This document shows positions 3,871 to 45,460 of a stretch of DNA of 58,828 nucleotides, one piece after another. A model generated the notes under the pieces. The model was not told the DNA's origin. It saw only the letters and a program-made list of their open reading frames with translations, and ran no database searches. The DNA is taken from contig CAZHGQ010000002.1 of assembly GCA_964532205.1 (NCBI GenBank), positions 1 to 58,828 on the forward strand, written 5' to 3'. The stretch comes from an uncultured Candidatus Saccharibacteria bacterium. Its GTDB lineage: Bacteria > Patescibacteriota > Minisyncoccia > Phycocordibacterales > JAKAEA01. How positions within the stretch are numbered: position 1 is the stretch's first letter; each line of letters opens with the position of its first letter. Both the position numbers and the translations under genes were made by a program.

Positions 3871-4377
3871 ATGACACTTGGAACTCATGCGGTGGTCGGG
3901 GCTTTTGTCGGGGCGGCCGCGGCCCACAATCTGCCTTTGGCGGCCGCGGCCGCTTTTGCTAGTCATTTTTTGATGGACAGTATTCCACACTGGGATTATG
4001 CGATTTTATCGATTCAAAAAGATCCAGCCAACCCCTTAAATGATGATATGGGCAGCAATCGAATCTTATTTTACAAGGACCTTATTCGCACCGGTTTTGA
4101 TTTTGGTCTGGGCCTGTTGATTGCCTTTTTACTTTTCAAGTCGACTGGGCAAACAGTTTTGGTCGGTGCTTTACTTGGTGGCGTATGTGCGGCCTTACCA
4201 GATGCTTTACAATTTTTGTACTGGAAAGTTAGAAAAGAACCACTTATTTCCTTACAACGCTTTCATCTATTTATGCATGCTGATCATGATTTTAACAATG
4301 AACCAATCATCGGTTTTTTGATGCAGGCAGCGATTGTGGTATTGGTGGCAGTACTCAGTGCACTCTTCTTTATATAA
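3871..4377 (+). CDS. Small polytopic membrane protein, possibly YdjM/DUF457-like membrane-bound metal-dependent hydrolase
   Basis: 168 aa and hydrophobic throughout. It has an N-terminal GTH motif and HFLMDSIPHWDY (H-x3-D-x3-H), as in DUF457. The family call is from memory only. Confidence 0.4.
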   Translation: MTLGTHAVVGAFVGAAAAHNLPLAAAAAFASHFLMDSIPHWDYAILSIQKDPANPLNDDMGSNRILFYKDLIRTGFDFGLGLLIAFLLFKSTGQTVLVGALLGGVCAALPDALQFLYWKVRKEPLISLQRFHLFMHADHDFNNEPIIGFLMQAAIVVLVAVLSALFFI

Positions 4378-4378
4378 T

Positions 4379-5644
4379 ATGAAACAGTACCACTATCTCT
4401 ATTCGATCGCGATTTTAGCTACACTAGCGTTGGTAGTCTGGTTGTTTATGATGGTGCAGCCACGCCAGCGTACGTTGGCTACATATGTGGCGCGTGGTGT
4501 AGTGTCGCCGGCCGCCGCGGTGCAACTGTCATTCAAAAATGATGGCACGGTTATTGTTATAACCAAGAAAGATGGTGATGAAGTAGCGGCCGGCGACCTC
4601 ATAGCCGAACAGCGTCATGACCATATTCAACTCATGCTGAATAATGCACGTAAGTCTGTTGAGGCGGATGAAGCACTTATTGCCACCACCACAGCGGCTT
4701 TGCAAAAAGCCTTAGCCACAGCTTCTTCAACATATTCAATTTTAGCGGACGATCAATTCAAAACAATTTTGCAACAATCATATAGTGATATTGAAGATGT
4801 AATCTTTAATAAAACGGATCAGATTTTTATTAATCCAAAATCAGATAAACCACAGATTGCTTTTCCGGCAGATGCAGCTACCAAAATCAGTATCGAAAGT
4901 GGGCGAGTGGAAATCAGTAATCGTTTAGCTGTTTTAGCGCCAGCGATGAATGTATTGGCCTCAAGCACCAATCCATTGACAGTAAGTGAAACACTGAAAA
5001 AAGATGCCGCCGAGATTAATCTGTATCTCGACACGATTACCACGACATTTACTGGTCTGACACCAAATTATGGTTTGTCATCTTCAACCTTGGCAGTCTG
5101 GAACAGTGATATTGCATTGGCACACAAAAAAATTACAAATACTATTACAAAATTAGTTGCTGCTGAAGCAATATATAAAGGCCCAGCTGCAACCACTTCT
5201 CTGGTGTTTAAACCAAGTCAAAACTTACAAACAGAACTGGATCGTTTGCAGCAAAAGAAGTTATCAAATCAACGAAAAGTCAGTCAGTATACTGCAGCGT
5301 TGGCTGATACGTATTTGTACGCACCATTATCAGGTTACATAGCTTCAATTGCAGTTAATGAACAGCAGTATGTGGCGGCGCGTCAGCCGGTAGCGGCCAT
5401 TACCACTTCAGCTTTATATCAAATTCAACTTTCTATCCCCAAAGAAATGGTGGGTGCGGTAGTGGTAGGTAGCGCAGCTGATGTCAAAATTCCGGCTATT
5501 GCCAAAACCTATCGCTCGGTTGTGGCTGCCCTTAACCCTGATCCGCAGTCTGTTTCAATGTACAAGGCCACCATTCAACTCTTAGAGGCCGATACGCTTA
5601 TTAAACCTGGCGTCACAGCTGAAATCACTATGCATTTAAAATAA
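4379..5644 (+). CDS. HlyD-family / membrane-fusion (periplasmic adaptor)-like protein, no partner transporter adjacent
   Basis: N-terminal TM helix, a lipoyl-like hairpin (KKDGDEVAAGDLIAEQ ... LYAPLSGYIASIAVNEQQYVAARQPVAAI), a long helical middle and a C-terminal beta domain. I moved the start to ATG 4379 because the ORF-track extension from 4334 overlaps the upstream gene. Confidence 0.55.
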   Translation: MKQYHYLYSIAILATLALVVWLFMMVQPRQRTLATYVARGVVSPAAAVQLSFKNDGTVIVITKKDGDEVAAGDLIAEQRHDHIQLMLNNARKSVEADEALIATTTAALQKALATASSTYSILADDQFKTILQQSYSDIEDVIFNKTDQIFINPKSDKPQIAFPADAATKISIESGRVEISNRLAVLAPAMNVLASSTNPLTVSETLKKDAAEINLYLDTITTTFTGLTPNYGLSSSTLAVWNSDIALAHKKITNTITKLVAAEAIYKGPAATTSLVFKPSQNLQTELDRLQQKKLSNQRKVSQYTAALADTYLYAPLSGYIASIAVNEQQYVAARQPVAAITTSALYQIQLSIPKEMVGAVVVGSAADVKIPAIAKTYRSVVAALNPDPQSVSMYKATIQLLEADTLIKPGVTAEITMHLK

Positions 5645-13819: not shown

Positions 13820-14380
13820 ATGACTATATCAATTATTCTACTTGTAGTACTTGCAATTTTGTTCCTCTATGCCATTGCCTCATACAATGGTTTTGTGACT
13901 CTTATCAACCGTGCCAAGGAAGCCTGGGCTGATATCGATGTTCAACTCAAGCGTCGTTATGATCTCATTCCAAACCTTGTGAATACCGTCAAAGGTTATG
14001 CCGCCCACGAAAGTTCAGCCTTTGAAAACGTGACAAAGGCTCGAGCTGCTTCAGTGAGTGCTCAGGGTGTAGCTGAAAAAGCTAAAGCTGAAGGTGAATT
14101 GACCGGCGCTTTGACCAAACTTTTTGCTGTAGCTGAAGCCTACCCAGAACTTAAGGCCAATCAAAACTTTTTGAGTTTACAGAATGAACTTTCAGACACA
14201 GAAAATAAAATTCAGGCTGCACGTCGTTTCTATAATGGGAATGTTCGAGATTTGAACATTAAGATTGAACATTTCCCATCAAACCTTATCGCTGGATTTT
14301 TCCATTTCACTAAAATGGATTTCTTCGAGCTCGATGAAGCCAACCAAGCGGCTCGCAATCCGGTAGAAGTAAAATTCTAA
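13820..14380 (+). CDS. lemA: LemA family protein
   Basis: N-terminal TM, then YNGFVTL ... DIDVQLKRRYDLIPNLV ... RRFYNGNVRDLN. Confidence 0.9.
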   Translation: MTISIILLVVLAILFLYAIASYNGFVTLINRAKEAWADIDVQLKRRYDLIPNLVNTVKGYAAHESSAFENVTKARAASVSAQGVAEKAKAEGELTGALTKLFAVAEAYPELKANQNFLSLQNELSDTENKIQAARRFYNGNVRDLNIKIEHFPSNLIAGFFHFTKMDFFELDEANQAARNPVEVKF

Positions 14381-14383
14381 ACA

Positions 14384-16033
14384 ATGCGTATATTCGCGTT
14401 TTTCAGTACGGCTCTCCTGAGCCTGCTTATTACGACTACAGCATTTGCTCAGACCACAGAGCATATTCGCTCTTTCGACGCGCAGATACAGATTCAGACA
14501 AATTCAAGTATTCAGGTTAAGGAAACAATTGTCTATGATTTTGCTGATCAACAAAAGCACGGTATTTTCCGCACGATTCCGGAAAAACTCGAATCCATTT
14601 CAGTTGTTGATGAACACAATCAGCCATACACATTTAAAGTTTCTGGTCAGGAAATAAAAATTGGTGATGCTGATAAAACGATTTCTGGCGTTCACACCTA
14701 CGTAATTTCATATACGGTCAATCGAGCAGTTGATTATTACAAAGATTTTGATGAATTGTATTGGAATGTGACGGGTAATGACTGGCAGGTACCCATTGAT
14801 TTAGTTTCGGTGCGAATTCAATTACCGCAGGTAATTCAACAATCTGATTTTCAAGCGAGTTGTTATGTTGGAGCTCGGGGTAGCACTGAGCGCTGTGGTT
14901 TTGCTCCAACACTTGCCGGTGACATCGTGGAAGCCGGAACCGAGGTGCTTGGTGCTGGGGAGGGTTTGACAATAGCTGTTGGTTTTCCAAAAGGTTTAGT
15001 CACGCCACCGACACGGGCTGAACAAATGTGGCAATTCATAAAAGAATATGGAATCTTACTGCTGCCGATTCTAGTTTTTGCGACAATGTTTTGGTTGTGG
15101 TGGAAAAAAGGCCGCGACCCGAAGGGTCGCGGCACGATCGTGGCCGAATACGACACACCGGATAATCTCTCACCACTTGAAATTGCCGCCGTCCTTAATG
15201 AGCGAGTTAAAAACAAAGATATTTCTGCCGAAATAATTCACCTCGCTACAAAGGGTTATCTCACAATTACCAAAACACAGGAAAAGGGTTTGTTATTAAA
15301 ACACGATGAATATGTTCTAACAAAAATCTCCGACAAAATCCCCGAAACTGAATTTGATCAAAAAATTCTCGCCGGTCTTTTTGGTGAGGCAAAAGAAGTT
15401 AAACTTTCAGATCTTAAAAAAGTTTTTTACAAAGAAATTTCCGGTATTACTAAAGCTGTGTTCGCATCAGTAATTACCAAAGGGTATTACAAAGAGTCAC
15501 CTCAAGCTACGACACTCAAATACATCGGCTTGGGCATGCTTATTCTCGGTATAGTTTTTATTATTGGCGCCATTACTGATTCGTTCAATGGTCCAGGTGT
15601 ACTGGCGCTCGGCGTCACATTTGTTGTGGTGTTGTGCTTCTCATTCATAATGCCTAAAGTTACCCCGGCTGGCGCTTTACTGCGAGATAAAATTAAAGGT
15701 TTGAAATTATATATGAATGTAGCTGAGAAGGATCGTATTAATTTTCACAATGCGCCCGAGAAAAATCCTGCACTATTTGAGCACTTACTGGCGTATGCAA
15801 TGATATTGGGTATTGAAGAAAAATGGGCTAAACAGTTTGAGGGTATATATCTCACACCGCCATCGTGGTACCACGATCCCTCAATGTCTGGCTTCAACTC
15901 AATGATGTTTGTCCACAACATGTCGACATTTAATTCTGTAGCTGCAACTACATTGGCTACATCACCAGGTGGCTCCGGCGGCGGCGGATTTTCAGGTGGT
16001 GGTGGCGGAGGTGGTGGCGGCGGTAGTTGGTAA
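14384..16033 (+). CDS. DUF2207-type membrane protein with poly-Gly C-terminus
   Basis: Signal peptide, ~200-aa outside domain, several TM helices and the tail GGSGGGGFSGGGGGGGGGGSW. It is the typical partner of lemA. Confidence 0.75.
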   Translation: MRIFAFFSTALLSLLITTTAFAQTTEHIRSFDAQIQIQTNSSIQVKETIVYDFADQQKHGIFRTIPEKLESISVVDEHNQPYTFKVSGQEIKIGDADKTISGVHTYVISYTVNRAVDYYKDFDELYWNVTGNDWQVPIDLVSVRIQLPQVIQQSDFQASCYVGARGSTERCGFAPTLAGDIVEAGTEVLGAGEGLTIAVGFPKGLVTPPTRAEQMWQFIKEYGILLLPILVFATMFWLWWKKGRDPKGRGTIVAEYDTPDNLSPLEIAAVLNERVKNKDISAEIIHLATKGYLTITKTQEKGLLLKHDEYVLTKISDKIPETEFDQKILAGLFGEAKEVKLSDLKKVFYKEISGITKAVFASVITKGYYKESPQATTLKYIGLGMLILGIVFIIGAITDSFNGPGVLALGVTFVVVLCFSFIMPKVTPAGALLRDKIKGLKLYMNVAEKDRINFHNAPEKNPALFEHLLAYAMILGIEEKWAKQFEGIYLTPPSWYHDPSMSGFNSMMFVHNMSTFNSVAATTLATSPGGSGGGGFSGGGGGGGGGGSW

Positions 16034-16040
16034 TACATAT

Positions 16041-16916
16041 ATGAATATCTATCACGAACAAAGTAAAAATGTGTTTCGAACCTGGTCTTTAATGACACTG
16101 TTTTTTGTCATAATCATTTTTATTGGCTACGGTTTTGCTTTGGCTTATAACGATGCGGCAATTCTTTATATTGCAGTCATCTTCAGCATCTTCATGAATA
16201 TTTTTAGTTATTGGTTTTCTGACAAGATAGTTCTCAGTATGTACAAAGCTCAGCCAATTTCTCGCGAGACAAACTATGATTTATGGAATACTGTAGAAAA
16301 TCTTTCAATTGCCGCTGGTTTGCCAATGCCCAAGGTTTACATTATCCCTGATGCAGCACCAAATGCCTTTGCTACGGGACGTAACAAAGAGCATTCAGCG
16401 GTGGTGGTCACAGCGGGCCTATTGCAAATGCTCAATAAATCCGAACTTGAAGGTGTGATTGCGCACGAACTTGCACATATTGGCAATCGTGACATTCTTA
16501 TTTCAACAATTGTGGTAGTACTTGTGGGTTTTGTCAGTATTCTTTCAAATATGTTTATTCGCACCTCATTCTTTGGTCGTCGCAGTGATCGAGAGGGTGG
16601 CAATGCAATCTTTGTCTTAATAGGTTTTGCGTTGGCTATTCTTTCGCCAATTGCCGTGACACTTATTCAATTGGCAATTTCCCGTAAGCGTGAATACTTG
16701 GCTGACGCCTCGGGCGCACTTCTCACACGTTATCCAGAAGGTTTGGCCAGTGCTTTGGAAAAAATTGGTAGTTACAGCGGTCAATTGCGCAATGCCAATA
16801 ATGCCACCGCCCATCTTTTTATCTCAAATCCATTCGGCAATCGCAGAATGGCTACGCTTTTTGCCACACATCCAGCGATTGAAGATCGCATCCGTATTTT
16901 GCGTGGTATGATATAG
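16041..16916 (+). CDS. htpX: Zinc metalloprotease HtpX (M48)
   Basis: HELAHIGNRD (HExxH), four TM segments and a distal EYLADASGA. The start is ATG 16041; the ORF-track extension overlaps the poly-Gly tail of the previous gene. Confidence 0.9.
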   Translation: MNIYHEQSKNVFRTWSLMTLFFVIIIFIGYGFALAYNDAAILYIAVIFSIFMNIFSYWFSDKIVLSMYKAQPISRETNYDLWNTVENLSIAAGLPMPKVYIIPDAAPNAFATGRNKEHSAVVVTAGLLQMLNKSELEGVIAHELAHIGNRDILISTIVVVLVGFVSILSNMFIRTSFFGRRSDREGGNAIFVLIGFALAILSPIAVTLIQLAISRKREYLADASGALLTRYPEGLASALEKIGSYSGQLRNANNATAHLFISNPFGNRRMATLFATHPAIEDRIRILRGMI

Positions 16917-17620: not shown

Positions 17621-17697
17621 AATATTATATAGAATACGGACAAATTGATCTTTGTCATTTACCTCGAAAGGTATGTCTCACCGTCCGGGTAGCTGAA

Positions 17698-17725
17698 GGG
17701 AGAGGATCGTTTCCTCTCCCTTTTT
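17698..17725 (+). terminator. Intrinsic terminator
   Basis: GGGAGAGGA-TCGTT-TCCTCTCCC followed by TTTTT. Confidence 0.8.
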
Positions 17726-17758: not shown

Positions 17759-17845
17759 GGAGAGATGCGAGAGTGGTTTAATCGGCAGTCCTGGAAAGAC
17801 TGTGTGCGGGTAACCGTACCAAGGGTTCGAATCCCTTTCTCTCCG
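17759..17845 (+). tRNA. tRNA-Ser (anticodon GGA), class II long variable arm, CCA not encoded
   Basis: The acceptor GGAGAGA pairs with TCTCTCC. The anticodon arm is CAGTC-CTGGAAA-GACTG, the variable arm is GTGCGG-GTAA-CCGTAC, and the T arm is AAGGG-TTCGAAT-CCCTT. Confidence 0.9.
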
Positions 17846-20218
17846 CTAGTTGTTCTTTTTTACTACCACATGCCCAACAATTCCCATAAGCGTGAGTAGG
17901 GAAATCATGCCGCCAATCCAAACACTGCGACTATTTTTAAACTCAAGTGAAATTGTTGATGTGGATGTGCGGATCAGGGTCATGGCCGGACTTGCCATGT
18001 AAACATCACCACCATATTTGTCGTGCCACCACGGGAAATATGAATTTTTTAAATATACATACGTTGGTGTACCATCATTTCCGACGCCTATCCTAATCTC
18101 GGTATTATTTTGAACTTGTATCTGTGCGGTAGATGTAGCAGTGCGTACGCTTTGGACATCAAGAACACGCATTAAAATACCTATATCTTGACGTACATTG
18201 CCGGTGCGATCAATTGAAAATATGTGTAGTCGTTTATCGGTGGAACGCTGCTGCATTAAAAGCTGGTACAAACGATCGTCGCTTTTCAATAAAATAATAT
18301 TTTTCGTTTGAGCTGCAGCAATGAGTCTTTTATATGCGGTCTGAATATTGCCGTATGAATAGTGGGTGATAAATATTGAGTTAAAATTTTCAATATCGGT
18401 ACTGCTATCGAGATGTTGATCGTTGGCGCGAACTAATACATTTTTGAAATTCGTCCAGAAAAACCATTCCTCATTCAGACGTAGCCAGTCATAGGCAGTG
18501 GGTCCGCCATAAGGTCGATCAGATGTTTTTAGTTCACTAAATACGAGTGTTGGCTCGATGGGCAGGGTCTCAACAAGGTGGGTCGGACGAATGTCTTCGT
18601 ATACGCGCCAGTTACCATATTGATTAAGGGGTTTGATGTATTCAGGCAAACGGGTATCAAATGTTTTCTGGCGTTGTGGCGAGCGAAGTAGGAAATATTT
18701 GATTCCAAAGAGTCGGGCACGCTCTAAATGCGCAGTCATATTCTGTAAGTAAAATTCCTGACTGTTGCTACTGGTATTGCCTATGTCATCACATAGCGAG
18801 CAAATCACGCCATAGGATTCGTGATTATACGAGAAAATGTTGCGTAAAGGTTGAATAAAGGGAGACTGAATGCTGGATTCACGGAAAATGTTCCAGATCG
18901 TTTGATGGGTACCGCTATTACCCAGTAATGCTGCAATAATAAAATGGGTCGGCTGTTTGTAATCACTCAGTTGAGAGTATCGGGGATCGACGTCTCGCCA
19001 GGCTTCTACAACTGATCGGCCGTCGGTATTTTTCGATACATCTGATATCATCTGTTTGATCTGAGAATCAATACTGTACATGCCAGCTAAGTGGTAGTGA
19101 GCTGGCGTAATCCAAAACACAAAAGGTAGAACCAGAATGATGATGCCAGCAATACGAAATTTTCCCGAGAGTTTTAATCGTTGAATAAGTTCAGTAATGC
19201 CTATAGGAGCAAGTATAAAAAACAATAAGTAACTGGCTGAAAGGATGCGGAACGGTTGGAGTGGCAAACCAGGAATGATTTTATTTAATGGCAAGACTGC
19301 GACTAAAAATAGGGCGTACGAACTTATGCTTAATCCCAACAACACCGGATGTCGACGTTTTGTGATTAGCACATAACCAGTTAACAGAAGTGCAGCACCT
19401 TGGCTGGTTAGAGCCACGAACAAGGGGACCGGGGCCTGGGTTTTGGAAAGAAAATATGACGATGTTTCAAGTAGGGGTAAAAGCCAAATTCCCGACAAAC
19501 AAAAAGCTAGAAGCAGATAGATAGAATATTTTTTTAAAACTCGCCAATCTTTTGAAATGTACCAGTCGCTTAAAACAAAGCAGGTAAAAACAATGCCCGC
19601 AACTTCAGCCATATGGACATTAGATATAAATACTAGACCCAATAAAATTGCTGATAACCAGAAACGGCGTGAATTATGTGTGCCAATAAAGCAGAGAAGC
19701 CAGATTAAAAATACAATGGCCGCGAATAACTGGCTGTATAAACCGTTTTCAAATGTTCCACCCATCGAAATACCTAATAGACCACCGAAATCTGCTTTAT
19801 CGGCCAAAAAGAGAATCGCAAAAAAACCCGCCAATGCCGCTAACCAGGAATCAAAACCGAGTTTTTTATATACAAACCAAATTAACCAAGGAAATGACAG
19901 TGTCAGGACGATAAAAAATATTTTAAATACAACATCAAAGTCTACTGGTACTGTGTGAGCAATTGTGGCCAATGAATAGCTTAAAAGGGGTGAATAACCT
20001 AAAGGCCAAGGCATACCGGTATACCACGTACCAACCCAGCCGTAAACAGCTGGGAAAATATGCTGGTTGTAGTAATTATTTATGGCGTAATGACTAATGC
20101 CATCGGTACCACTTATTAGTGAATTGGTGAAAAAACGCCAGAGGTATGGTCCAAGATAAATAATCGAAGTTATGACAACAAAAAATACGGCTAAAAACTG
20201 TTGAAAACTCTTATTCAT
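17846..20218 (-). CDS. Polytopic membrane protein, paralog A (GT-C-like layout; family unassigned)
   Basis: 790 aa: about 11-13 TM helices, a ~350-aa soluble domain and a terminal TM. It has an early loop motif TDGISHY and FPAVYGWVGTWYTGMPWPLGYSPL. It is collinear with ORF 25358-27742. Confidence 0.55.
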   Translation of the reverse strand: MNKSFQQFLAVFFVVITSIIYLGPYLWRFFTNSLISGTDGISHYAINNYYNQHIFPAVYGWVGTWYTGMPWPLGYSPLLSYSLATIAHTVPVDFDVVFKIFFIVLTLSFPWLIWFVYKKLGFDSWLAALAGFFAILFLADKADFGGLLGISMGGTFENGLYSQLFAAIVFLIWLLCFIGTHNSRRFWLSAILLGLVFISNVHMAEVAGIVFTCFVLSDWYISKDWRVLKKYSIYLLLAFCLSGIWLLPLLETSSYFLSKTQAPVPLFVALTSQGAALLLTGYVLITKRRHPVLLGLSISSYALFLVAVLPLNKIIPGLPLQPFRILSASYLLFFILAPIGITELIQRLKLSGKFRIAGIIILVLPFVFWITPAHYHLAGMYSIDSQIKQMISDVSKNTDGRSVVEAWRDVDPRYSQLSDYKQPTHFIIAALLGNSGTHQTIWNIFRESSIQSPFIQPLRNIFSYNHESYGVICSLCDDIGNTSSNSQEFYLQNMTAHLERARLFGIKYFLLRSPQRQKTFDTRLPEYIKPLNQYGNWRVYEDIRPTHLVETLPIEPTLVFSELKTSDRPYGGPTAYDWLRLNEEWFFWTNFKNVLVRANDQHLDSSTDIENFNSIFITHYSYGNIQTAYKRLIAAAQTKNIILLKSDDRLYQLLMQQRSTDKRLHIFSIDRTGNVRQDIGILMRVLDVQSVRTATSTAQIQVQNNTEIRIGVGNDGTPTYVYLKNSYFPWWHDKYGGDVYMASPAMTLIRTSTSTISLEFKNSRSVWIGGMISLLTLMGIVGHVVVKKNN

Positions 20219-20243
20219 ATTGAGGTGCAGTTATTATATACTG

Positions 20244-20249
20244 TATACT
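20244..20249 (+). promoter_or_regulatory. -10 box TATACT 6 nt upstream of ATG 20256
   Basis: Tandem TATACT boxes are present; the second ends 6 nt before the ATG. Confidence 0.4.
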
Positions 20250-20255
20250 GTACAC

Positions 20256-20399
20256 ATGGAATGGCGAAAAATATCCAGACCCCTGTTAGTTTTGTTGTGT
20301 ATTTCGCTTGTTTTTTTCTTATTATTCTACGTGGCTAAAAACACCACCAGTCCTGAGCCAATAAATACAGTAATTGGCGCCACATCGACGTCTCAATAG
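20256..20399 (+). CDS. 47-aa single-TM small protein directly upstream of the NHL giant
   Basis: MEWRKISRPLLVLLCISLVFFLLFYVAKNTTSPEPINTVIGATSTSQ. Its stop lies 1 nt before ATG 20401. Confidence 0.3.
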   Translation: MEWRKISRPLLVLLCISLVFFLLFYVAKNTTSPEPINTVIGATSTSQ

Positions 20400-20400
20400 C

Positions 20401-23400
20401 ATGTTTTCTCAAATAAAAACCAAGACTCTTCTCTACATTCTGTTTCTAAGTTCAAGTATTGTTGTGTTGCCATCACTTATTACTTTTGCAACTAATACAT
20501 TTAATTTGGGTTGGGGCGGTGGAGGTGATTATTACATGAATGCTCCGAGCGGTATTGCTGTAAATAGTGATGGAGACGTGTTCGTGGTGGAAAAAAGTAA
20601 TCACCGAGTTAAGAAATTTAACGCAGACGGTACCTTCGTTGTGTCATCGGGTATACCTTATTCAGGTTCTGATAACGGTAAATTTGATAATCCTGAAGGC
20701 GCTGTTGTTGATGCTTCAGGAAATGTTTATGTTGTGGATGAAGTCAATAACCGGGTACAAAAACTTAATTCAAATTTAACCTATGTGTCTAAATTCGGAA
20801 CGACAGGTTCAGGCAATGGTCAGCTTAGTTCACCACGCGGAATCGCTATTGATATAAATGGCAACATTTACGTCACAGAACATGGTAATGGGCGAGTTCA
20901 AAAGTTTGATTCTTCGGGCAATTACGTAGCAAAATGGGGTAATTTTGGTAGTGTGCGTGGCGTTGCAGTTGATTCTGATTTAAATGTATATGTAGCAGAC
21001 GCTGGAATGTATAGAGTTCAGAAGTTTGACTCAGGCGGTAATTTGATAGCGACAATTGGTGGAACTGAAGGTTCTGCTGAAAATCAATTTGATCGACCTT
21101 GGGGTGTGGCAATTGACCCGACAAATAACCATGTGTATGTTGCAGACTTTGGTAGAAACAGAATACAACACTTTGATTCATCAGGTGCGTTTGTTGATAT
21201 GTTTGGTTGGGGTGTGGATGATGGATCAAATTCATTTCAAACGTGTACGAGTGGCTGTCAGGCTGGTACCTCTGGCTCAGGAGATGGTCAATTAGCTAGC
21301 CCCGCTTATTTGGCTTTTAGTCAGGATGGTGCCGTGCTGTATGTAACAAATCAAGATGTTAATCGGGTTCAAAGTTTTGTGATTCATCCGGCAGCGCCAA
21401 GCGTTAAAACAAGTAATGCCACTAATCTCGGATATACAACAGCTACGCTCAATGGGCGTATTCTTTCAACCCGGGGTGCTGATGCTACGGTCCGTGGATT
21501 TCAGTGGGGCCCAACTACTGCCTATGGTGCCACGACAACTGAAACTGGAACTCTTTCTGCAGGAAGCTTTAATTCAACTATCGATGGTTTGACGCGTGGA
21601 AATACCTATCATTTCCGCGCATATGCCACAAATATGTATGGTACAACTTATGGTAGTGATAAAACATTTGTGGCTGACTTCTTGTTTAAATTCAGTTCCC
21701 AGTGGGGTAATCTTGGTGGTGGCGCATCTGATTTTGGTATTGATAATGCAGGCGGTATCTATACCACAGATAGTAATACGTATCGCATTCGAAAGTTTTT
21801 CAATGAAGCACTTGTCTCACAGACGCCGGCAATGAGTTCAATTGTTCCGGGTCTTGGTGTGGATGGTGATGGTAATCAATATGTACCAGAAGTGGCATCT
21901 TATCGTGTAACAAAATTTGATTCGAACAGTAATTTCGTTATGACGTTTGGCTGGGGAGTTCAGGACGGTTCTTCAGAGTTTCAAGTTTGCACTTCGGGTT
22001 TTGCAACTTGTGCCCAGGGATCGATGGGTTCAGGAGATGGACAGTTTTTCCGTGCCCAGGACGTGGCAGTGGATTCGGTAGGAAATATTTATGTACTTGA
22101 TCAGGTGGAAGGTAGGGTTCAAAAGTTTGGACCTGACGGTTCTTATATTACAAAGTGGGGTTCAAGTGGTTCTGGTGACAATCAGCTTGATATACCGATG
22201 AGTATAACAATTGATCCGTCAGACAATGTGTATATTCTTGAGGTAGGTGGTCCATATCGTGTCAAGAAATATTCTTCCGATGGAACTTTTTTATTGAAGT
22301 GGGGTTCATCAGGTACTGCTGAGAGTCAATTTATGCAACCAAGAGGAGTTAATGCAGGTCTAGACGGCAATATATATGTGGCAGACTCGGAGAACTCTCG
22401 GGTTCAGCAATTTAGTCCTACTGGTGCATTTATAGCAATGTTTGGCTGGGGTGTTGACGATGGTTCCTCAGAGTTTCAGGTCTGTACCTCGGGCTGCCAG
22501 ATAGGTATACCGGCTTCAACAGGTTATGGGCAGTTTAATTCACCTCGCGCTATACAGACAGATAGTAACGGACGAGTCAAGGTTTTGGATTCACAACCAA
22601 TACAAACCTTCCTGACGAGACCACTTGGACCAGAAGTGGTTACGCTGAGTCCAACTCTTATCACTACAAACTCCGTAACCCTCAATGGAAATGTGGTGAT
22701 CTCAGACGGTGAACCGGCTACTGAATGGGGTTTTCGTTGGGGTACAACCACTGCTTACGGAGCAACAACGACCATTCCCGGTAGTATTACGAGTGGTCTT
22801 TTCAGTACTTCAATTGATGGTTTGGTTGCTGGAAGACGATACCACTACCAAGCATATGCTAAAAATAGCTATGGTTTAGGTTATGCTACTGACACTCCGT
22901 TTGCCGCCACGTTCATTGCCAATGGTAACCCTTATGTTTCAGTGACGGGTTATGGTACACAGCAACCAGCAAGTGGTTTCTTCGGTAGTATCAACGCTTT
23001 GGCTATTGATTCTCATGATAATTTATTTGTGGCAGATGGTGGTAACTATCGAGTCTCGAAGTTCGACTCAGCTGGCAACACCCTGACTTCTTGGGGTAGT
23101 TTTGGTATTGAGATCACAAACTCTTTCCGTGCTCTCTATAATGTTGCACTCGATAGTAATGATAATGTGTATATTGCTGATGGTGACATATACCGACTTC
23201 TTAAATATGATTCATCAGGACATTACCTCAATTCTTCGGAAATGTATATTGGTCAAGCTGAGGGTCAAGTCGGGCGCAAGGATCTCGGACTAGCAATTGG
23301 GTCATCAGACGCACTATACGTAGCGGATATGTACAATTATCGAATTCAGAAGTTTGATTCGACGTTAGCTTTTCAGAGAACCTGGGGATATGGTGTATCT

Positions 23401-25371
23401 AATGGTTCGAATGCATTTCAGATATGTATGAGTAGTTGTCAGGCGGGCACGATTGGCTCCAACGACGGACAGTTTGAGGATGAAAATATTGATATTGCTG
23501 CTGATAAGAATAGTGGCCAAGTTTACTCAATCGACCGCAAGACGCCGCGAATTCAAGCTTTTGATTCGAATGGTAACTTTCTTTTCAAATGGGGTAGTCA
23601 AGGCTCTGGAGAGGGTCAGTTTTCAAGTCCTGCAGGTGTGGCAGTTGATAATAATGGTTTTGTATATGTTACAGATAGGAATAATTATCGTGTTCAGAAA
23701 TTTAATTCATCGGGTACATATGTAAGTTCACCTGTTAGTGTAACTTCAGGAAGTGGTCCAGGACAATCTAAGGCCTTAGACTCAATTGCGATTGATTCTT
23801 CTGGTAACATTTATATTTCAGATGCCACAAATCGAACAGTCCAAAAGTTTTCATCATCCGGTAGTTATTTGGGTCGGCTCTTGGGTATCAATCCAGTTGG
23901 TAATGGTCAATTTAGATCTCTCTCGGATATGGTTCAAGATTCTTCTGGAAATGTATATGCTACCGATCCTGGTAATGGTCTGATCCAGAAATTTGATGCT
24001 AATGGTCGTTTTATTAAGCAATGGGGTGTTTCGCTTTCAGGTAATGGTGGGGGTAGCGGAGGAGGTGGTAGCGGTGGCGGATCTGGTAATGTGTCATCAA
24101 ACCTCACGTCCATTGCAATTGGTCCAAATAATCGTTTGTACGTTGTTGATATTGATCAAAACTCAGTTGATATCTTTGACACAGACGGCAACCTGATCAC
24201 TGTCTTTGGTGGAACAGGTACAAGTGATGGTCAATTTACCATACCTGACGGTATTGATGTTGATAACTCGGGTAATGTCTATGTTGCTGATAAATTGGGT
24301 TATAGAATCCAGAAATTTGATGCAGCCGGCAATTTTATCACTAAGTGGGGAACATGGGGACGGGACGAAGGATATCTGTCTAATCCAGCTGGTGTGGCGG
24401 TGGCACCAAACAATAATATTTATGTTGTAGATCAGGATAATGATCGGGTATCGGTTTTCACCAATACAGGCAGTTTTGTTAAAACTTTTGGTTCGTCACA
24501 GTATGCTCAGGATTCTTTAGCAAATGGTGAATTTAATTTGCCAACAGATATATATATTGATGATGGTGGTAATGTCTACGTTGTTGATCAAGATGGAAAT
24601 CGAATCCAGAAGTTTGATCTGGACGGTAATTTTATTGCTCGCTGGGGCACAAATGGTACTGAACTTGGTCAGTTTTCTTATCCGTCAGGTATTGCGGGTA
24701 ATGGTACAAACCTAGTTCATGTTGCAGATACAGGTAATAATCGTATCCAAACCTTTACAATGTACAATGTTACACCATCAACTCCTCCACCTCAATCCGG
24801 CGGTAGTTCAGGTTGGGTCAGCGTGAATGTGCCTGAATTTGCACAGGCACAGAAACCAGCAACACTGTTTACTCGTGATTTATCAATACGTATGAGTGGC
24901 GCGGATGTGCTTACGTTGCAGAAATTCTTAAATAACCACGGATTTGTCCTGGCAAAATCTGGGGTTGGTTCACCGGGTAAAGAAACGACCACTTTTGGTA
25001 CCCTGACTCAACAGGCTCTGATCAAATTCCAGAAGAAGTATAACCTTAAACAGACGGGTGTACTGAATGATCAAACCAAGGCTGTCATTGAACTTATGGG
25101 GTTAAATGTGTCTCCTGTGCCGGTTTCGGCCTTGAAATTTGATCGTGATCTACAGTTACATGATGAAGGAAATGACGTCTTGGCGCTGCAAAAGTATTTG
25201 AATAGTCATGGTTATGTAGTATCAGAAACTGGCTCAGGTTCACTAGGTAATGAAACAACAACATTCGGTGTGAAAACTAAAGAGGCACTTAAAAAATACC
25301 AAAAAGATCGTGGTATCCCACAAACAGGGGTGTTAGGACCACTGACACGCAAAGCACTCACCACTCAGTAG
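20401..25371 (+). CDS. Giant secreted NHL-repeat beta-propeller protein with two Fn3-like inserts and two C-terminal peptidoglycan-binding (PG_binding_1-like) domains
   Basis: It has an N-terminal signal/anchor. I count about 24 blades of the type (V/I)YV(A/V)D-x3-(N/Y)R(V/I)QKFD-x-(S/D)G. Fn3-like segments lie at approx 21388-21675 and 22621-22910. A GGS linker lies at 24040-24090. Two repeats of the type LxxGxxGxDVxxLQKxLN ... TTFGxxTxxALxKxQ span 24866-25365. The start is ATG 20401, after the small ORF. Confidence 0.85.
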   Translation: MFSQIKTKTLLYILFLSSSIVVLPSLITFATNTFNLGWGGGGDYYMNAPSGIAVNSDGDVFVVEKSNHRVKKFNADGTFVVSSGIPYSGSDNGKFDNPEGAVVDASGNVYVVDEVNNRVQKLNSNLTYVSKFGTTGSGNGQLSSPRGIAIDINGNIYVTEHGNGRVQKFDSSGNYVAKWGNFGSVRGVAVDSDLNVYVADAGMYRVQKFDSGGNLIATIGGTEGSAENQFDRPWGVAIDPTNNHVYVADFGRNRIQHFDSSGAFVDMFGWGVDDGSNSFQTCTSGCQAGTSGSGDGQLASPAYLAFSQDGAVLYVTNQDVNRVQSFVIHPAAPSVKTSNATNLGYTTATLNGRILSTRGADATVRGFQWGPTTAYGATTTETGTLSAGSFNSTIDGLTRGNTYHFRAYATNMYGTTYGSDKTFVADFLFKFSSQWGNLGGGASDFGIDNAGGIYTTDSNTYRIRKFFNEALVSQTPAMSSIVPGLGVDGDGNQYVPEVASYRVTKFDSNSNFVMTFGWGVQDGSSEFQVCTSGFATCAQGSMGSGDGQFFRAQDVAVDSVGNIYVLDQVEGRVQKFGPDGSYITKWGSSGSGDNQLDIPMSITIDPSDNVYILEVGGPYRVKKYSSDGTFLLKWGSSGTAESQFMQPRGVNAGLDGNIYVADSENSRVQQFSPTGAFIAMFGWGVDDGSSEFQVCTSGCQIGIPASTGYGQFNSPRAIQTDSNGRVKVLDSQPIQTFLTRPLGPEVVTLSPTLITTNSVTLNGNVVISDGEPATEWGFRWGTTTAYGATTTIPGSITSGLFSTSIDGLVAGRRYHYQAYAKNSYGLGYATDTPFAATFIANGNPYVSVTGYGTQQPASGFFGSINALAIDSHDNLFVADGGNYRVSKFDSAGNTLTSWGSFGIEITNSFRALYNVALDSNDNVYIADGDIYRLLKYDSSGHYLNSSEMYIGQAEGQVGRKDLGLAIGSSDALYVADMYNYRIQKFDSTLAFQRTWGYGVSNGSNAFQICMSSCQAGTIGSNDGQFEDENIDIAADKNSGQVYSIDRKTPRIQAFDSNGNFLFKWGSQGSGEGQFSSPAGVAVDNNGFVYVTDRNNYRVQKFNSSGTYVSSPVSVTSGSGPGQSKALDSIAIDSSGNIYISDATNRTVQKFSSSGSYLGRLLGINPVGNGQFRSLSDMVQDSSGNVYATDPGNGLIQKFDANGRFIKQWGVSLSGNGGGSGGGGSGGGSGNVSSNLTSIAIGPNNRLYVVDIDQNSVDIFDTDGNLITVFGGTGTSDGQFTIPDGIDVDNSGNVYVADKLGYRIQKFDAAGNFITKWGTWGRDEGYLSNPAGVAVAPNNNIYVVDQDNDRVSVFTNTGSFVKTFGSSQYAQDSLANGEFNLPTDIYIDDGGNVYVVDQDGNRIQKFDLDGNFIARWGTNGTELGQFSYPSGIAGNGTNLVHVADTGNNRIQTFTMYNVTPSTPPPQSGGSSGWVSVNVPEFAQAQKPATLFTRDLSIRMSGADVLTLQKFLNNHGFVLAKSGVGSPGKETTTFGTLTQQALIKFQKKYNLKQTGVLNDQTKAVIELMGLNVSPVPVSALKFDRDLQLHDEGNDVLALQKYLNSHGYVVSETGSGSLGNETTTFGVKTKEALKKYQKDRGIPQTGVLGPLTRKALTTQ

Positions 25372-27742
25372 ATTTTAGCGTTCTTAGAAGTATAAGACTT
25401 GTCACAGTAGTAATGATACTAATTAACCAACCAAGATATACGCTTGGTGGCGTTGTAAAGTCTATTTCAAATGACGATGTAGCATACGTTAACATGTAGC
25501 TTGGGTTGGACAAGAATACTGGTTGACCGTCTGGGCGTTGCCAAGCGGGATGATAACTATTTTGAATGAGTATTGGAACAGGTGTTGTTGTTGTGCTCAA
25601 CTTGATATTGATTTTTTTATCTCGGATTATGGCCGCAGTCACTATAGCTGAATTATATTTTGTATTTGTTACGCTCTGTAATACATCGGGTAATTGTTTG
25701 TTGAGTGGATCAGGTTCGGCGTATTGTACGTGTAAACGCGGAATGATAGTGATGTTGGGTGTCTGGTGAGTAACAGTGAATTCTTGAATTTTTTTAAACA
25801 AACTATTTGTGTCATCAGCCACAAGAATAATACGATGCTGCTGAGCACTTTTTATTATCCTATTGAACGCTTGGTCAATATTTTTGTATTTATACGAGCT
25901 AATAAAACTAGGTGAGCTGAGTAGTTCAGGACTCGAATCAAGCGATTGGTTGTTTGCATATATTAGTGTTGTGGTCGAATTGTTGTGATACAGTAACACT
26001 TCTTGAAGTCGAGACCAGTCATAGTCATCAATCTGCCTACCTTTAAAGCTAAATGGACCATAAAATATGACTGGTTCGGATTGTACAGAATAGGCTCGAG
26101 GTAGATTTGTTGTGGTCCGGTACAATGACCATGGACCAAAACGTTTTTCAAGTTTGATTCGAGCATCATGTTCGATTTGAGCTTTGGCAAACGGTGACCG
26201 TATCAGGAATGTATCAATACCGAGATGTAGAGCGCGATTCACATTAACTGTTGCCGATTGGTTTCTGAACATTAAATCGCTTGTAAGGAAACTGACTGTG
26301 CCCCAAGCGTCATAACTTAACGAAAGAGTGCTTCGGACCGGTTCCAAAAAAATTGCGCTAATCGCTGATTCGCGCAAATTGAATGTGGTTATAGGCACGT
26401 ATTCGCCCAAGATTGAGCCGGTTATATACGCAGACGGTTGTTGACCAATGAAGACTGGTTCAATTTGTAATAGGTTAGATGATGGATTGTTTTTGATATA
26501 AGAAACAATCTCGGCCATTCGGTCTTGATTGTAAGAGTAATAGATGCCGGTTGTGTATTGCCAGCTCCAGCTTCCATGCCACATAAAAATTATTCCTATG
26601 ATCAAAACGAAAAACAGTTTTGAATATTTTTTGAAAAAAAGTGTTTGATGAACAAGTGTGGTGTAAATAAGTCCAACTAGAATTGGGTTGAGGAAGAATA
26701 ACACTGCCAACCACCTGCCGGCATGAGCAACAAGACCGATATTGCCTAAAGTATATTGCAAGAGAGTTATTGGTAATAAAAGTAGGCTGCTCGTAGCAAA
26801 TAACTGTAAAAACTTATTGCCAAATCGGTACCCAATATATGTACCAGCCAAGATAGTAAGACCAAGGATGGGAACGGTTAATAGCAGAGCGGTGAGTTGG
26901 GGTGGTTGAGTTGGCGGATAAGTATTTAGGTAGCTGTAATACATCACAAGAGGTAAACTCCAACATGCTGTAATAGCAATAGCCCACACACCATTAAGGG
27001 AATATATACCGAGCACTTTGCTCGCCACACGAATATTTTTGATTTTTGGTGCAATTGCTAGGCAGCACGAAACAATAAAAAATATAATAGCCGGTAAAAC
27101 CATGTGGGCATTGGAGAGAGCTAAGCCAGCTAACAGTAAAGCTGAAATCAGAAAGTGTCTTTTTGAAAGGTTGATTGAGGGTAAGTAGTATATCCAAAAC
27201 AGAAAAAAGATTGCCGCGATCAGATGGGCATACATACCCGTGTGGATAGTTGAGGAAACAGTTACTCCATAGTCTCCCAGAGTGCGATACGATGTTGAGA
27301 GAATAACCACAGTTACAATTGCACTAAGTGCTGTGGCTGTATTGTCTCGAGTAATTTTTTTTGTAATGCCAATAATAATAAAAGGAATTGATGCTTGAAG
27401 TGTAGTAATAAAAACCTTAAAAATGATGATTGGCTTGATAAAAAAGAAGATGTGGTACAGCACGGCTGTTAGGAAGAAGAAGAGTGGGGGATAGAATTGG
27501 GGAAACGGCATACCGGTAAACCATTGACTGGTCCAGCCCCAAACACTCGGAAATGTGGTTTGTGAGTAGTGTAAAGATGCAGCAAAGTGAGCAGCACCAT
27601 CCCAACTCTGGATAAACGGGCTAGTCCAGAAAATCGTGAATTTTTGCCAACATAAAGCAATGATGCACAAACTTGCCAACAAGCCTGTGGCAGCGGTATT
27701 GGTGAAAATATCAATAAAAATACCTTTTATGTAATTGCGCAT
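25358..27742 (-). CDS. Polytopic membrane protein, paralog B (GT-C-like layout; family unassigned)
   Basis: About 794 aa. Motifs WDGAAHF, FPSVWGWTSQWFTGMPFPQFYPPL, LSNAHM, LGIDTFLIRSP and NSYHPAW are collinear with paralog A, and it has a terminal TM. The start is ATG 27742; the GTG 27757 extension is itself the -10 box. The stop is TGA, and the gene overlaps the NHL gene end by 14 nt. Confidence 0.55.
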   Translation of the reverse strand: MRNYIKGIFIDIFTNTAATGLLASLCIIALCWQKFTIFWTSPFIQSWDGAAHFAASLHYSQTTFPSVWGWTSQWFTGMPFPQFYPPLFFFLTAVLYHIFFFIKPIIIFKVFITTLQASIPFIIIGITKKITRDNTATALSAIVTVVILSTSYRTLGDYGVTVSSTIHTGMYAHLIAAIFFLFWIYYLPSINLSKRHFLISALLLAGLALSNAHMVLPAIIFFIVSCCLAIAPKIKNIRVASKVLGIYSLNGVWAIAITACWSLPLVMYYSYLNTYPPTQPPQLTALLLTVPILGLTILAGTYIGYRFGNKFLQLFATSSLLLLPITLLQYTLGNIGLVAHAGRWLAVLFFLNPILVGLIYTTLVHQTLFFKKYSKLFFVLIIGIIFMWHGSWSWQYTTGIYYSYNQDRMAEIVSYIKNNPSSNLLQIEPVFIGQQPSAYITGSILGEYVPITTFNLRESAISAIFLEPVRSTLSLSYDAWGTVSFLTSDLMFRNQSATVNVNRALHLGIDTFLIRSPFAKAQIEHDARIKLEKRFGPWSLYRTTTNLPRAYSVQSEPVIFYGPFSFKGRQIDDYDWSRLQEVLLYHNNSTTTLIYANNQSLDSSPELLSSPSFISSYKYKNIDQAFNRIIKSAQQHRIILVADDTNSLFKKIQEFTVTHQTPNITIIPRLHVQYAEPDPLNKQLPDVLQSVTNTKYNSAIVTAAIIRDKKINIKLSTTTTPVPILIQNSYHPAWQRPDGQPVFLSNPSYMLTYATSSFEIDFTTPPSVYLGWLISIITTVTSLILLRTLKSTEW

Positions 27743-27748
27743 GGGCCC

Positions 27749-27754
27749 ATTATA
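27749..27754 (-). promoter_or_regulatory. -10 box TATAAT 6 nt upstream of ATG 27742
   Basis: The minus strand reads GTGTATAAT-GGGCCC-ATG. Confidence 0.45.
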
Positions 27755-27841
27755 CACGTTTAGGCCGGTGTATAAAAAAGAGGCATTTTTTTAGGGGTAT
27801 GGTATACTACCCCCTAAGGTTTAATAGATAATTTAAGATAC

Positions 27842-28096: not shown

Positions 28097-28110
28097 TTCG
28101 AAAATCAAAA

Positions 28111-28135
28111 AGCCGGCGCGTAGCGCCGGCTTTTT
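28111..28135 (+). terminator. Intrinsic terminator
   Basis: AGCCGGCGC-GTA-GCGCCGGCT followed by TTTT. Confidence 0.85.
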
Positions 28136-28191
28136 GTTTGTCTTTATTTTTGATTTGTGTAATATGGCTCTAGTTTAACGAAAGGAGTTCC

Positions 28192-44587: not shown

Positions 44588-45460
44588 ATGAATTGGCGAA
44601 CCAAAAGAACCTCACTATTTTTTACAGCAATTATTGTGATTGTTATTGCTGTTGTATTGTACTTTGCTGTCTTTCATAAGCAGAGTGTATCGAATCGGAT
44701 TTCCATCATTCTTTCGCCGCACTACGATGATGCCGCCCTGTCTCTCGGTGGGCTTTTGGCAAGGGAGGGTAAGAATGCGCTTGTGGTGAGTTTCTTTACG
44801 GATAGTCCGGATATAGCTACAACAACGAACTGGGATGCGCGTTCAGGTTTGGCTTCAAGTACTGATCCAGAAAAAATCCGTAGTACTGAAAATGAAAAAT
44901 CGGCTGCTATCACTGGCGCCAGAATCCAGAGTTTATATTACCGCGATAATCAATATGGTCACACAGCAACTGATGATGAATTAGTCGCTGATATTAGTAA
45001 AGATATCCAGATATTGTTAGCAGCTCATTCTGGTTATGCTCATATTGATGTGTATGGTCCAGCCACATTTGGTCCGGGTATTACACACCCCGATCATGCT
45101 ATTTTGCACCAAGCTTATTTGAATGTTGCCAAAGATTATCCAAACACAGCAATTAATTTTTACATATACGAAGATTTTCCATACGTCACACGTTTCAACA
45201 GGGATGTTGTGAAATCGTTGCAGGGCTACATGGAAGATGCTGATGAGATTTATTTAGAACGACAACAGATTGATCTGACAGAGAAGCAGGTGAACACAAA
45301 ACTCAAAGCGATTGTTGAATATAAATCTCAAGTCAAAGCGTTTGCCAGCTATCAAACAGATATTATAAAAGCAGCGGAAACTTATACCACACAGCGTTGC
45401 GATGCATCAGGTGAGAAACCGTGTGAGGTAGTGTACTGGCTACGTCACTTTAGTGAGTAA
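44588..45460 (+). CDS. PIG-L/LmbE-family N-acetylglucosaminyl deacetylase with N-terminal TM anchor
   Basis: ILSPHYDDAALSLGG and ITHPDHAILH. The N-terminal helix is FFTAIIVIVIAVVLYFAVF. Confidence 0.8.
   Translation: MNWRTKRTSLFFTAIIVIVIAVVLYFAVFHKQSVSNRISIILSPHYDDAALSLGGLLAREGKNALVVSFFTDSPDIATTTNWDARSGLASSTDPEKIRSTENEKSAAITGARIQSLYYRDNQYGHTATDDELVADISKDIQILLAAHSGYAHIDVYGPATFGPGITHPDHAILHQAYLNVAKDYPNTAINFYIYEDFPYVTRFNRDVVKSLQGYMEDADEIYLERQQIDLTEKQVNTKLKAIVEYKSQVKAFASYQTDIIKAAETYTTQRCDASGEKPCEVVYWLRHFSE

Follow-up and report, generated by a model that had tools for sequence, protein, structure and literature searches.

We describe two membrane proteins, here called paralogs A and B, whose genes flank that of a giant NHL-repeat protein in a 58,828-nucleotide stretch of DNA (the window) from an uncultured Candidatus Saccharibacteria bacterium (contig CAZHGQ010000002.1 of assembly GCA_964532205.1). 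Both belong to an unnamed GT-C family that is large, is found mostly in Patescibacteria (the Candidate Phyla Radiation, CPR) and in metagenomes and is distantly related to the curated family PF10131. From their fold, topology, conservation pattern and gene linkage we infer an enzymatic activity, a donor type and an acceptor: A and B would be extracytoplasmic GT-C glycosyltransferases, with the adjacent NHL protein as the most likely acceptor of A-type enzymes, on which it would be O-glycosylated, and with B acting on the same protein or on another envelope molecule. We assign this reading a probability of about 0.5.

A (790 residues) and B (794 or 799 residues, according to the start codon) align end to end with 27% identity over ~780 residues (E = 8e-57), a similarity that, judged from their sequences, is far beyond chance. 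A first-pass annotation of this DNA had called them collinear paralogs of ~790 residues, and the motifs that it quoted are present in both. These are a DG-x2-H loop motif (TDGISHY in A and WDGAAHF in B), an extended stretch reading FPAVYGW..WYTGMPWP in A and FPSVWGW..WFTGMPFP in B, and the pairs SNVHM/SNAHM, FLLRSP/FLIRSP and NSYFPWW/NSYHPAW. An AlphaFold2 model of A, built with 11 homologues, had a predicted local distance difference test score (pLDDT) of 85.5 and a predicted TM-score (pTM) of 0.87. In the model, 11 transmembrane (TM) helices are followed by a ~390-residue soluble domain of mixed α/β and β-sandwich structure and by a final TM helix, which agrees with the layout predicted earlier of roughly a dozen TM helices, a soluble domain and a terminal TM anchor. 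The hydropathy profiles of A and B agree, and the N-terminal membrane domain is of the size usual in GT-C enzymes (8–13 or more TM helices).

When the model of A was compared with the PDB by Foldseek, all matches at ranks 1–13 were GT-C enzymes (E = 7e-7 to 3e-2, probability 0.99–1.0), and the next match had an E value of 0.14. These enzymes include mycobacterial AftD (6w98, E = 7e-7) and AftB (9dlh), yeast and human STT3 (6c26, 8agc, 6s7t and 6s7o) and Archaeoglobus AglB (3wak and 5gmy). TM-scores were 0.38–0.51 for the AftD, STT3 and AglB matches and 0.30/0.38 for AftB. The modelled structure supports a GT-C fold for A, as had been suspected from the layout alone, and B is assigned to the same fold by its full-length homology to A. 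Sequence searches of the PDB with A, B and a 63-sequence profile gave nothing meaningful and no match to an oligosaccharyltransferase (OST) chain. The outer domain modelled alone (A residues 372–765, pLDDT 82.9) had no significant fold match in the PDB (best E = 0.027), its best matches being weak glycoside-hydrolase and AftD fragments.

Counted over the modelled helices, A carries 18 Lys/Arg residues in its inner loops compared to 4 in the short outer loops. By the positive-inside rule, the N- and C-termini are predicted to lie inside and the DG-x2-H loop (Asp39/His43) and the large domain outside. The first loop contains a single conserved acid, not a DxD pair, and thus a modified form of that motif. 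This acid (D39 in A, D53 in B) is invariant in alignments A1 and A2 and at least 90% conserved among 62 family representatives, in accord with the outward-facing conserved acidic loop that the first-pass annotation had called for. Across the 62-sequence alignment ~30 positions are at least 90% conserved and all of them except M1 and P110 are located in the outer loops or the outer domain. They include G37, D39, H43, the FP..GW..W..G.P..Y.P stretch, G149, G159, N200, W245/P248, P319/R324, E405, E447-S448 and a Y727-type position. Such conservation of the predicted outer face is characteristic of an extracytoplasmic active site, in which Arg324 would be a candidate ligand of the donor phosphate. 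B seems to be active rather than degenerate, because it retains all residues that are invariant in alignment A1, in which B is included: the D and H of the first loop, N200, H202, R324 and R446-E447-S448.

The same pattern bears on the possibility that these proteins have a GT-C-like fold but are not glycosyltransferases and are instead scaffolds, transporters or enzymes that transfer some group other than a sugar. The function of the family, like that of PF10131, is a predicted one, and the first loop has one conserved acid instead of a DxD pair. However, modified forms of DxD are an accepted feature of GT-C enzymes (PMC8035078), conservation concentrated on outer-face loops is typical of GT-C active sites, and family genes are repeatedly and tightly linked to GT2 genes that resemble polyprenyl-phosphate sugar synthases, once with a GtrA gene as well (see below). 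We consider a function other than glycosyl transfer very improbable.

Curated databases barely register the family. A matches PF10131 (PTPS_related), a member of the GT-C clan (PMC7801869), with E = 2e-4 and 20.3 bits, which is below the gathering threshold of 26.4 bits, and B matches neither PF10131 nor any other Pfam family. A profile of the family reaches PF10131-annotated proteins at E = 2e-17; in the proteins found, which have 897–983 residues and 18–24% identity, the loop-1 Asp, R324 and the C-terminal Tyr727/Pro729 are invariant. The profile check that had been suggested for PF10131 thus revealed a distant relationship, and only 4 of the 62 sampled representatives touch PF10131, weakly. 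Neither A nor B has a match in NCBIfam, to the YfhO, PMT, PMT_2, ArnT and Glucos_trans_II profiles (E up to 1) or to PF02516 (STT3/AglB/PglB, GT66). Membership of the OST enzymes was rejected, because the WWDYG motif that marks the start of their outer domain is not conserved; in A the sequence WWHDKYG occurs far towards the C-terminus, at residue 730, and nothing like it is present in B.

A word-index search returned seven relatives for A and one for B, and the extreme rarity that these numbers suggested was overturned by an exhaustive HMMER profile search. The latter found 1,751 representatives of clusters at 50% identity with E ≤ 1e-3, of which 265 had E ≤ 1e-30; most of the 150 representatives listed are full-length, with ~750–850 residues. 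None of ten representatives checked has a name in the databases and nearly all come from metagenome or raw-read assemblies. The few genome records are metagenome-assembled genomes (MAGs) of Candidatus Woesebacteria and Saccharibacteria, one unclassified MAG and a ~2-kb contig from a MAG labelled Gammaproteobacteria. Literature searches on PF10131/PTPS_related, on GT-C enzymes in Patescibacteria or Saccharibacteria and on NHL repeats in CPR bacteria found nothing specific.

The candidate acceptor, the product of the gene between A and B, matches the Pfam NHL family in 15 stretches (E = 8e-105) and PG_binding_1 (PF01471) in 2 stretches (E = 7e-29). Its N-terminus, read from the likely start codon, resembles a signal peptide. 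Multiple NHL propellers with fn3-like inserts come next, and a short S/T/P linker precedes the two PG_binding_1 domains at the C-terminus. This domain content implies that the protein is secreted and binds peptidoglycan non-covalently. The terms "wall-anchored" and "peptidoglycan-tethered" used in the first-pass annotation are too strong, because the protein has only PG_binding_1 domains and no covalent anchoring signal was seen in it. A Cys-containing insert (GWGVxDGSxxFQxCTSGCQxG) recurs between propeller units at residues ~278 and ~691, with similar inserts at ~520 and ~1010, alongside two fn3-like modules (…GYTTATLNG…YHFRAYATN…).

The link between the family and NHL proteins comes from gene neighbourhoods. 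Our survey covered ~20 distinct loci and was probed with the family hidden Markov model, the NHL protein of the window and the neighbouring GT2 proteins; the locus search with alignment A1 yielded 4 genome and 13 metagenome loci. An A-like gene is adjacent to an NHL gene in four independent loci, the window included, which represent three gene orders and encode proteins that are only 37–40% identical. The NHL gene lies downstream of the A-like gene after a gap of 33 nt in L002 and of 27 nt in L007 (Woesebacteria), and upstream of it in L011/L025 and L024. In L002 a GT2 gene follows, so that GT-C, NHL and GT2 genes are all found together. Within ~250 kb of flanks, NHL genes were found only immediately beside a family gene and nowhere else. 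The linkage of the paralogs to surface-protein genes, for which the first-pass annotation had proposed to survey related genomes, was thus found for A-like genes and NHL genes, at three further independent loci, and not for the B subfamily, whose conserved partner is a GT2 gene.

Phylogenetic trees are consistent with this division. B groups with the GT2-linked genes with 100% bootstrap support and A is located on the other side of the tree with the NHL-linked genes; B-like genes adjoin GT2 genes and, except in the window, never an NHL gene. Rather than a recent pair, A and B represent two anciently separated subfamilies. An exclusive NHL-linked clade, to which A belonged with 92% support in the first tree, was given up when the addition of the genes from L028 and L032 cut the bootstrap support for A's attachment to 28%. 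What we claim is enrichment: NHL linkage recurs, is confined to the A side of the family and persists across different gene orders, but it is not universal.

Other secreted proteins are found beside more distant members. In a sister subclade, at L001 (8837–17044) and L005 (1082–5517), the GT-C gene is preceded by a gene for a ~383-residue single-TM protein, which shows 32% identity between the loci and has no Pfam match in the L001 copy. The downstream secreted proteins of both loci share a ~100-residue N-terminal module composed of a TM helix and a Cys-containing segment (GC.YYQAGPC...), and these Cys-module proteins are possible alternative acceptors. L013, L030 and L031, the flanks of P0018, encode several small cupredoxin-like proteins with membrane anchors, whose genes are interspersed with PF05635 (23S_rRNA_IVP) genes, as well as giants of more than 1,500 residues without Pfam domains.

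The relatives also point to a probable sugar donor. A small GT2 gene (~240 residues, PF00535) adjoins the family gene in at least eight loci. It is convergent with the family gene and overlaps its 3' end in L006, L008/9/16/23, L010, L017 and L018 and is divergent in L013/L030; in L002 it lies one gene away and in L029 three genes downstream. A GtrA-family gene adjoins the GT2 gene in L008, and a PF10131 protein gene likewise has an overlapping GT2 gene upstream. The best NCBIfam matches of the GT2 proteins, all sub-threshold, are mostly polyprenyl-phosphate sugar synthases (PpgS, PgfS, ArnC, dolichyl-phosphate hexose transferase and AglJ), and in the PDB they come closest to ArnC, Pyrococcus DPMS and the GtrB homologue sll0501. 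In L008, which comes from a Saccharibacteria MAG, a gene for a type IV pilin-like protein with an N_methyl motif (3888–4574) is located beside the GT2-GtrA pair and a B-type gene. Pilins are another plausible glycosylation target.

These data allow the proposal of the first-pass annotation to be weighed, a self-contained unit in which A and B together glycosylate the NHL adhesin encoded between them or help to assemble it. They might then work as a heterodimer (compare Pmt1-Pmt2 and EmbA-EmbB). Multi-copy cooperation does occur in the family. In P0013 (1546 residues) and P0014 (1549 residues) two diverged family copies are naturally fused into one chain, the N- and C-halves each being conserved between the two proteins, and in L033 a fusion, a PMT-like GT-C gene and a third family copy all run in one direction. 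The fusions hint that family members act as dimers or one after the other. PgfM1 and PgfM2, moreover, act in sequence on one adhesin (PMC5856776), and the 3' end of B overlaps that of the NHL gene by 14 nt (25358–25371), as had been reported. However, both halves of each fusion fall on the A-side of the tree and not with B, and the B subfamily is consistently found beside a convergent GT2 gene and elsewhere never beside an NHL gene. In none of the 19 other loci is an A-type gene paired with a B-type gene, let alone in a pair that flanks a surface-protein gene, so that the bracket around the NHL gene is unique to the window among the loci surveyed and is not a conserved feature. Nor is the locus self-contained: there is no donor synthase or flippase, since neither a small DPMS/GtrB-like GT2 gene nor a GtrA gene, nor a remnant of one, lies near A and B in the window, where the sole GT2 is a 413-residue processive-type enzyme ~20 kb from the locus. 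Finally, the NHL gene diverges from A and converges with B; the three genes have three orientations and are therefore three separate transcription units and no operon. We regard a dedicated A–B unit as improbable.

The reading favoured here, with the NHL protein as the acceptor of A, can be cast as a three-step route by analogy with characterised systems. A small GT2 enzyme at the cytoplasmic face would load a sugar onto polyprenyl phosphate, a GtrA-type flippase would turn the lipid-linked sugar outward and the GT-C enzyme, A or B, would pass the sugar to an acceptor outside the membrane. The active site would be formed by the first outer loop (Asp39/His43), by other outer loops (Asn200/His202 and Arg324) and by the ~390-residue outer domain. 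The adjacent NHL protein would be the most economical acceptor for A, and the modified sites may lie in the short S/T/P linker before the peptidoglycan-binding domains or at exposed Ser/Thr residues on the repeats. For B two roles are conceivable: like PgfM2, it may attach a second sugar to this protein, or it may act on a different envelope molecule.

Several observations weigh against this route. The S/T/P linker of the NHL giant is only ~14 residues long, and the protein has no long Ser/Thr-rich disordered region, the kind of region that Pgf and PgtC2 glycosylate. The outer domain, for which the PDB holds no informative match, provides no clue to the acceptor. AftD, the top fold match, and YfhO-type enzymes act on glycopolymers and not on proteins. 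For this family, as for PF10131, activity, donor and glycan are matters of prediction. L028 and L032 fall in A's subclade without an NHL neighbour. To these are added the two features of the window described above, the missing donor genes and the lack of co-transcription among the three genes.

Some of these points suit a serious rival, namely that A and B are GT-C enzymes with envelope glycopolymer, peptidoglycan or lipid acceptors, like YfhO, GtlB, ArnT or AftD, and that the NHL protein is a partner and not a substrate. It might then be an acceptor-binding or scaffolding subunit or merely a co-regulated envelope protein. AftD is a cell-wall arabinan enzyme, and most characterised systems that combine a GT2, a GtrA and a GT-C protein modify teichoic acids, polysaccharides or lipopolysaccharide (LPS), with separate acceptor-binding proteins speculated for some of them (PMC8035078). 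The A-like gene of L028 is located within a polysaccharide-type cluster of GT4, DUF4012 and MurJ-like genes, and the member in L012, outside the NHL-linked subclade, directly follows a fusion of a GH17-like domain and a processive GT2. The NHL protein itself is peptidoglycan-binding by domain content and has no long S/T-rich region. By contrast, adjacency to an NHL gene in three gene orders, including the co-directional gaps of 27–33 nt in L002 and L007, which is typical of enzyme-substrate or obligate-partner pairs, counts against this rival. Sister subclades with other secreted proteins (L001/L005 and L013/L030) fit protein-specific enzymes better than a shared polymer acceptor, and the GT-C protein already has a large outer domain of its own. 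On balance we regard glycopolymer or lipid acceptors as a real, if unlikely, possibility.

The neighbourhoods of the sister subclades also suggest an extension of protein glycosylation by A, which we offer tentatively and think rather doubtful at this breadth. A-type proteins might be fold-specific glycosyltransferases for the NHL propellers of Patescibacteria, with sister subclades serving other secreted modules, such as the Cys module of L001/L005 and the cupredoxin-like proteins of L013, so that the whole family of ~1,750 representatives would be a surface-protein glycosylation system.

The features of the locus are collected in Table 1. The 794-residue form of B corresponds to protein collection entry P0010. 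The 47-residue single-TM reading frame that had been noted before the NHL gene is indeed present; a 59-residue open reading frame (ORF) that encloses it (20220–20399) has no Pfam match. The 47-residue ORF has no counterpart in L002 or L007, where there is no room for one because the NHL gene starts ~30 nt after the GT-C gene. Promoter and terminator scans were uninformative; the promoter-like hexamers at 20214–20249 (plus strand) are consensus matches only, and the intergenic region contains fewer such sites than shuffled sequence.

Table 1 Coordinates of the features of the A–NHL–B locus and of family fusions in other loci.
Feature	Position	Strand	Description	Basis
Paralog A	17846–20218	-	790 residues; GT-C-fold membrane protein (modelled), NHL-associated subfamily	ORF map, model, tree
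Paralog A, TM domain	19103–20218 (residues 1–372)	-		AlphaFold2 model
Paralog A, extracytoplasmic domain (predicted)	17930–19102 (residues 373–763)	-		AlphaFold2 model
Paralog A, terminal TM helix	17852–17929 (residues 764–789)	-		AlphaFold2 model
Asp39 codon of A (TDGISHY)	20102–20104	-	Candidate catalytic or metal-binding acid, first extracytoplasmic loop	
Arg324 codon of A	19247–19249	-	Outer end of TM10; family-invariant in alignments A1, A2, A3 and A4	
A–NHL intergenic region, divergent	20219–20400		Holds the 47-residue ORF	
47-residue single-TM ORF, candidate gene	20256–20399	+	Immediately 5' of the NHL gene	
NHL giant	20401–25371	+	1656 residues from likely ATG 20401; ORF opens at TTG 20374	
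PG_binding_1 pair of the NHL giant	~24802–25368	+	C-terminal, 2 domains	
Paralog B	25358–27742	-	794 residues from ATG 27742; GT-C-fold membrane protein (by homology to A), GT2-associated subfamily	
Paralog B, longest ORF	25358–27757	-	799 residues from GTG 27757	
Paralog B, extracytoplasmic domain (predicted)	~25442–26566	-		
Paralog B, terminal TM helix	25385–25441	-		
Asp53 codon of B	27599–27601	-	799-residue numbering, from GTG	
Fusion and copy coordinates, L029	8001–12641			
Fusion and copy coordinates, L033	5868–10517 and 13398–15782			

Strong terminator-like hairpins at 28106–28136 and 17695–17723 (14 and 12 pairs, respectively) bound the three-gene block on both sides and set it apart from the adjoining housekeeping genes. 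A tRNA-Ser(GGA) gene (17759–17846, plus strand) shares one base with the stop codon of A on the minus strand. Directly upstream of the locus is a LemA, DUF2207 and M48 peptidase trio (13820–16916), in which the DUF2207 and M48 ORFs have an apparent overlap of 65 nt when called from their first start codons. The surroundings in the window are housekeeping genes (RNase J, GroEL, GAPDH, a split transketolase, ribosomal proteins and PheRS), and the gene content is typical of a small Patescibacteria-like genome. A horizontally acquired island was ruled against by the even GC content of about 0.41. The window also contains a second, unrelated cluster of glycosylation type (44588–48706), composed of a PIG-L-like deacetylase gene on the plus strand and, all on the minus strand, genes for a 447-residue GT-C-like membrane protein with weak PMT_2/GT22 matches, a 224-residue protein and the 413-residue membrane GT2 of processive type.

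The arrangement had been thought undescribed, and its concept is already known from the Pgf system. In the Streptococcus mutans cnm-pgfS-pgfM1-pgfE-pgfM2 locus, two paralogous GT-C membrane proteins with non-redundant roles act on the wall adhesin encoded beside them. They glycosylate it outside the cell, and the lipid-linked sugar that they use is the product of a GT-A/GT2 enzyme (PMC5856776, PMC12041528). Similarly, GtrB/PgtC2 of S. pyogenes glucosylates surface proteins through a GT-C enzyme (PMC12041528). Like the Pgf locus, that in the window encodes two GT-C paralogs beside the gene for a wall-associated surface protein. However, A and B have no detectable sequence relationship to the Pgf proteins, their locus is no operon and contains neither the GT-A nor the epimerase, and their host is a Patescibacterium and not a Firmicute. 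The candidate substrate is a folded NHL propeller protein with PG_binding_1 domains as opposed to an LPXTG adhesin with Thr-rich repeats, and the activity on it is predicted.

A and B also resemble the general multi-component systems, in which a GT-A/GT2 enzyme of the GtrB/CsbB type and a GtrA/GtcA flippase supply a GT-C enzyme (PMC8035078), among them GtrC, YfhO, GtlB and ArnT with ArnC. The likeness lies in the modelled GT-C fold, the predicted outward acidic loop, the large outer domain and, in the relatives, the small GT2 and once a GtrA. By contrast, A and B end in an additional TM helix that follows the outer domain and match none of the family profiles, and the GT2 and GtrA genes are not found at the window locus. 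Most of the known systems decorate teichoic acids, polysaccharides or lipid A, whereas the conserved neighbour of the A type is a protein. PF10131 is the only curated family with a sequence signal and one of its members also adjoins a GT2 gene, yet A falls below its gathering threshold and B is unmatched. STT3/AglB/PglB and mycobacterial AftD/AftB, the best structural matches, share the combination of a TM domain and an outer C-terminal domain but have no sequence match in the PDB searches; the WWDYG motif of the OST enzymes is not conserved in A and B, and the outer domain of A taken alone has no significant match in the PDB.

The novelty lies in the enzyme family, for which there is no curated model, name or solved structure, in its concentration in Patescibacteria-type metagenomic lineages and in its recurrent coupling to NHL propeller proteins. 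The Patescibacteria are a huge and mostly uncultured radiation, their episymbiosis depends on surface structures and the biochemistry of their envelopes is little understood. For this group our analysis predicts the active-site face of the enzymes, points to a probable donor pathway (GT2 and GtrA) and names a candidate acceptor class, the NHL propellers. If the NHL protein is the acceptor, the family would provide a first handle on surface-protein glycosylation in Patescibacteria and a new case of a substrate-linked GT-C enzyme; if it is not, the family would still constitute a new branch of the multi-component extracytoplasmic glycosylation systems.

Among eukaryotic GT-C enzymes, TMEM260 serves IPT domains and DPY19 serves TSR domains. 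TMTC1-4 are GT-C enzymes for cadherin domains, and their N-terminal regions detect PF10131 by HHpred (PMC7801869). A and B lack the TPR domain of these proteins and belong to another phylogenetic domain, and the comparison is pure analogy: what they may share is the concept of a GT-C enzyme dedicated to one type of folded extracellular repeat. Were A-type proteins dedicated to NHL propellers, they would be a bacterial counterpart of the domain-specific TMTC, TMEM260 and DPY19 enzymes and part of a previously unrecognised surface-protein glycosylation system in ultra-small, uncultured bacteria.

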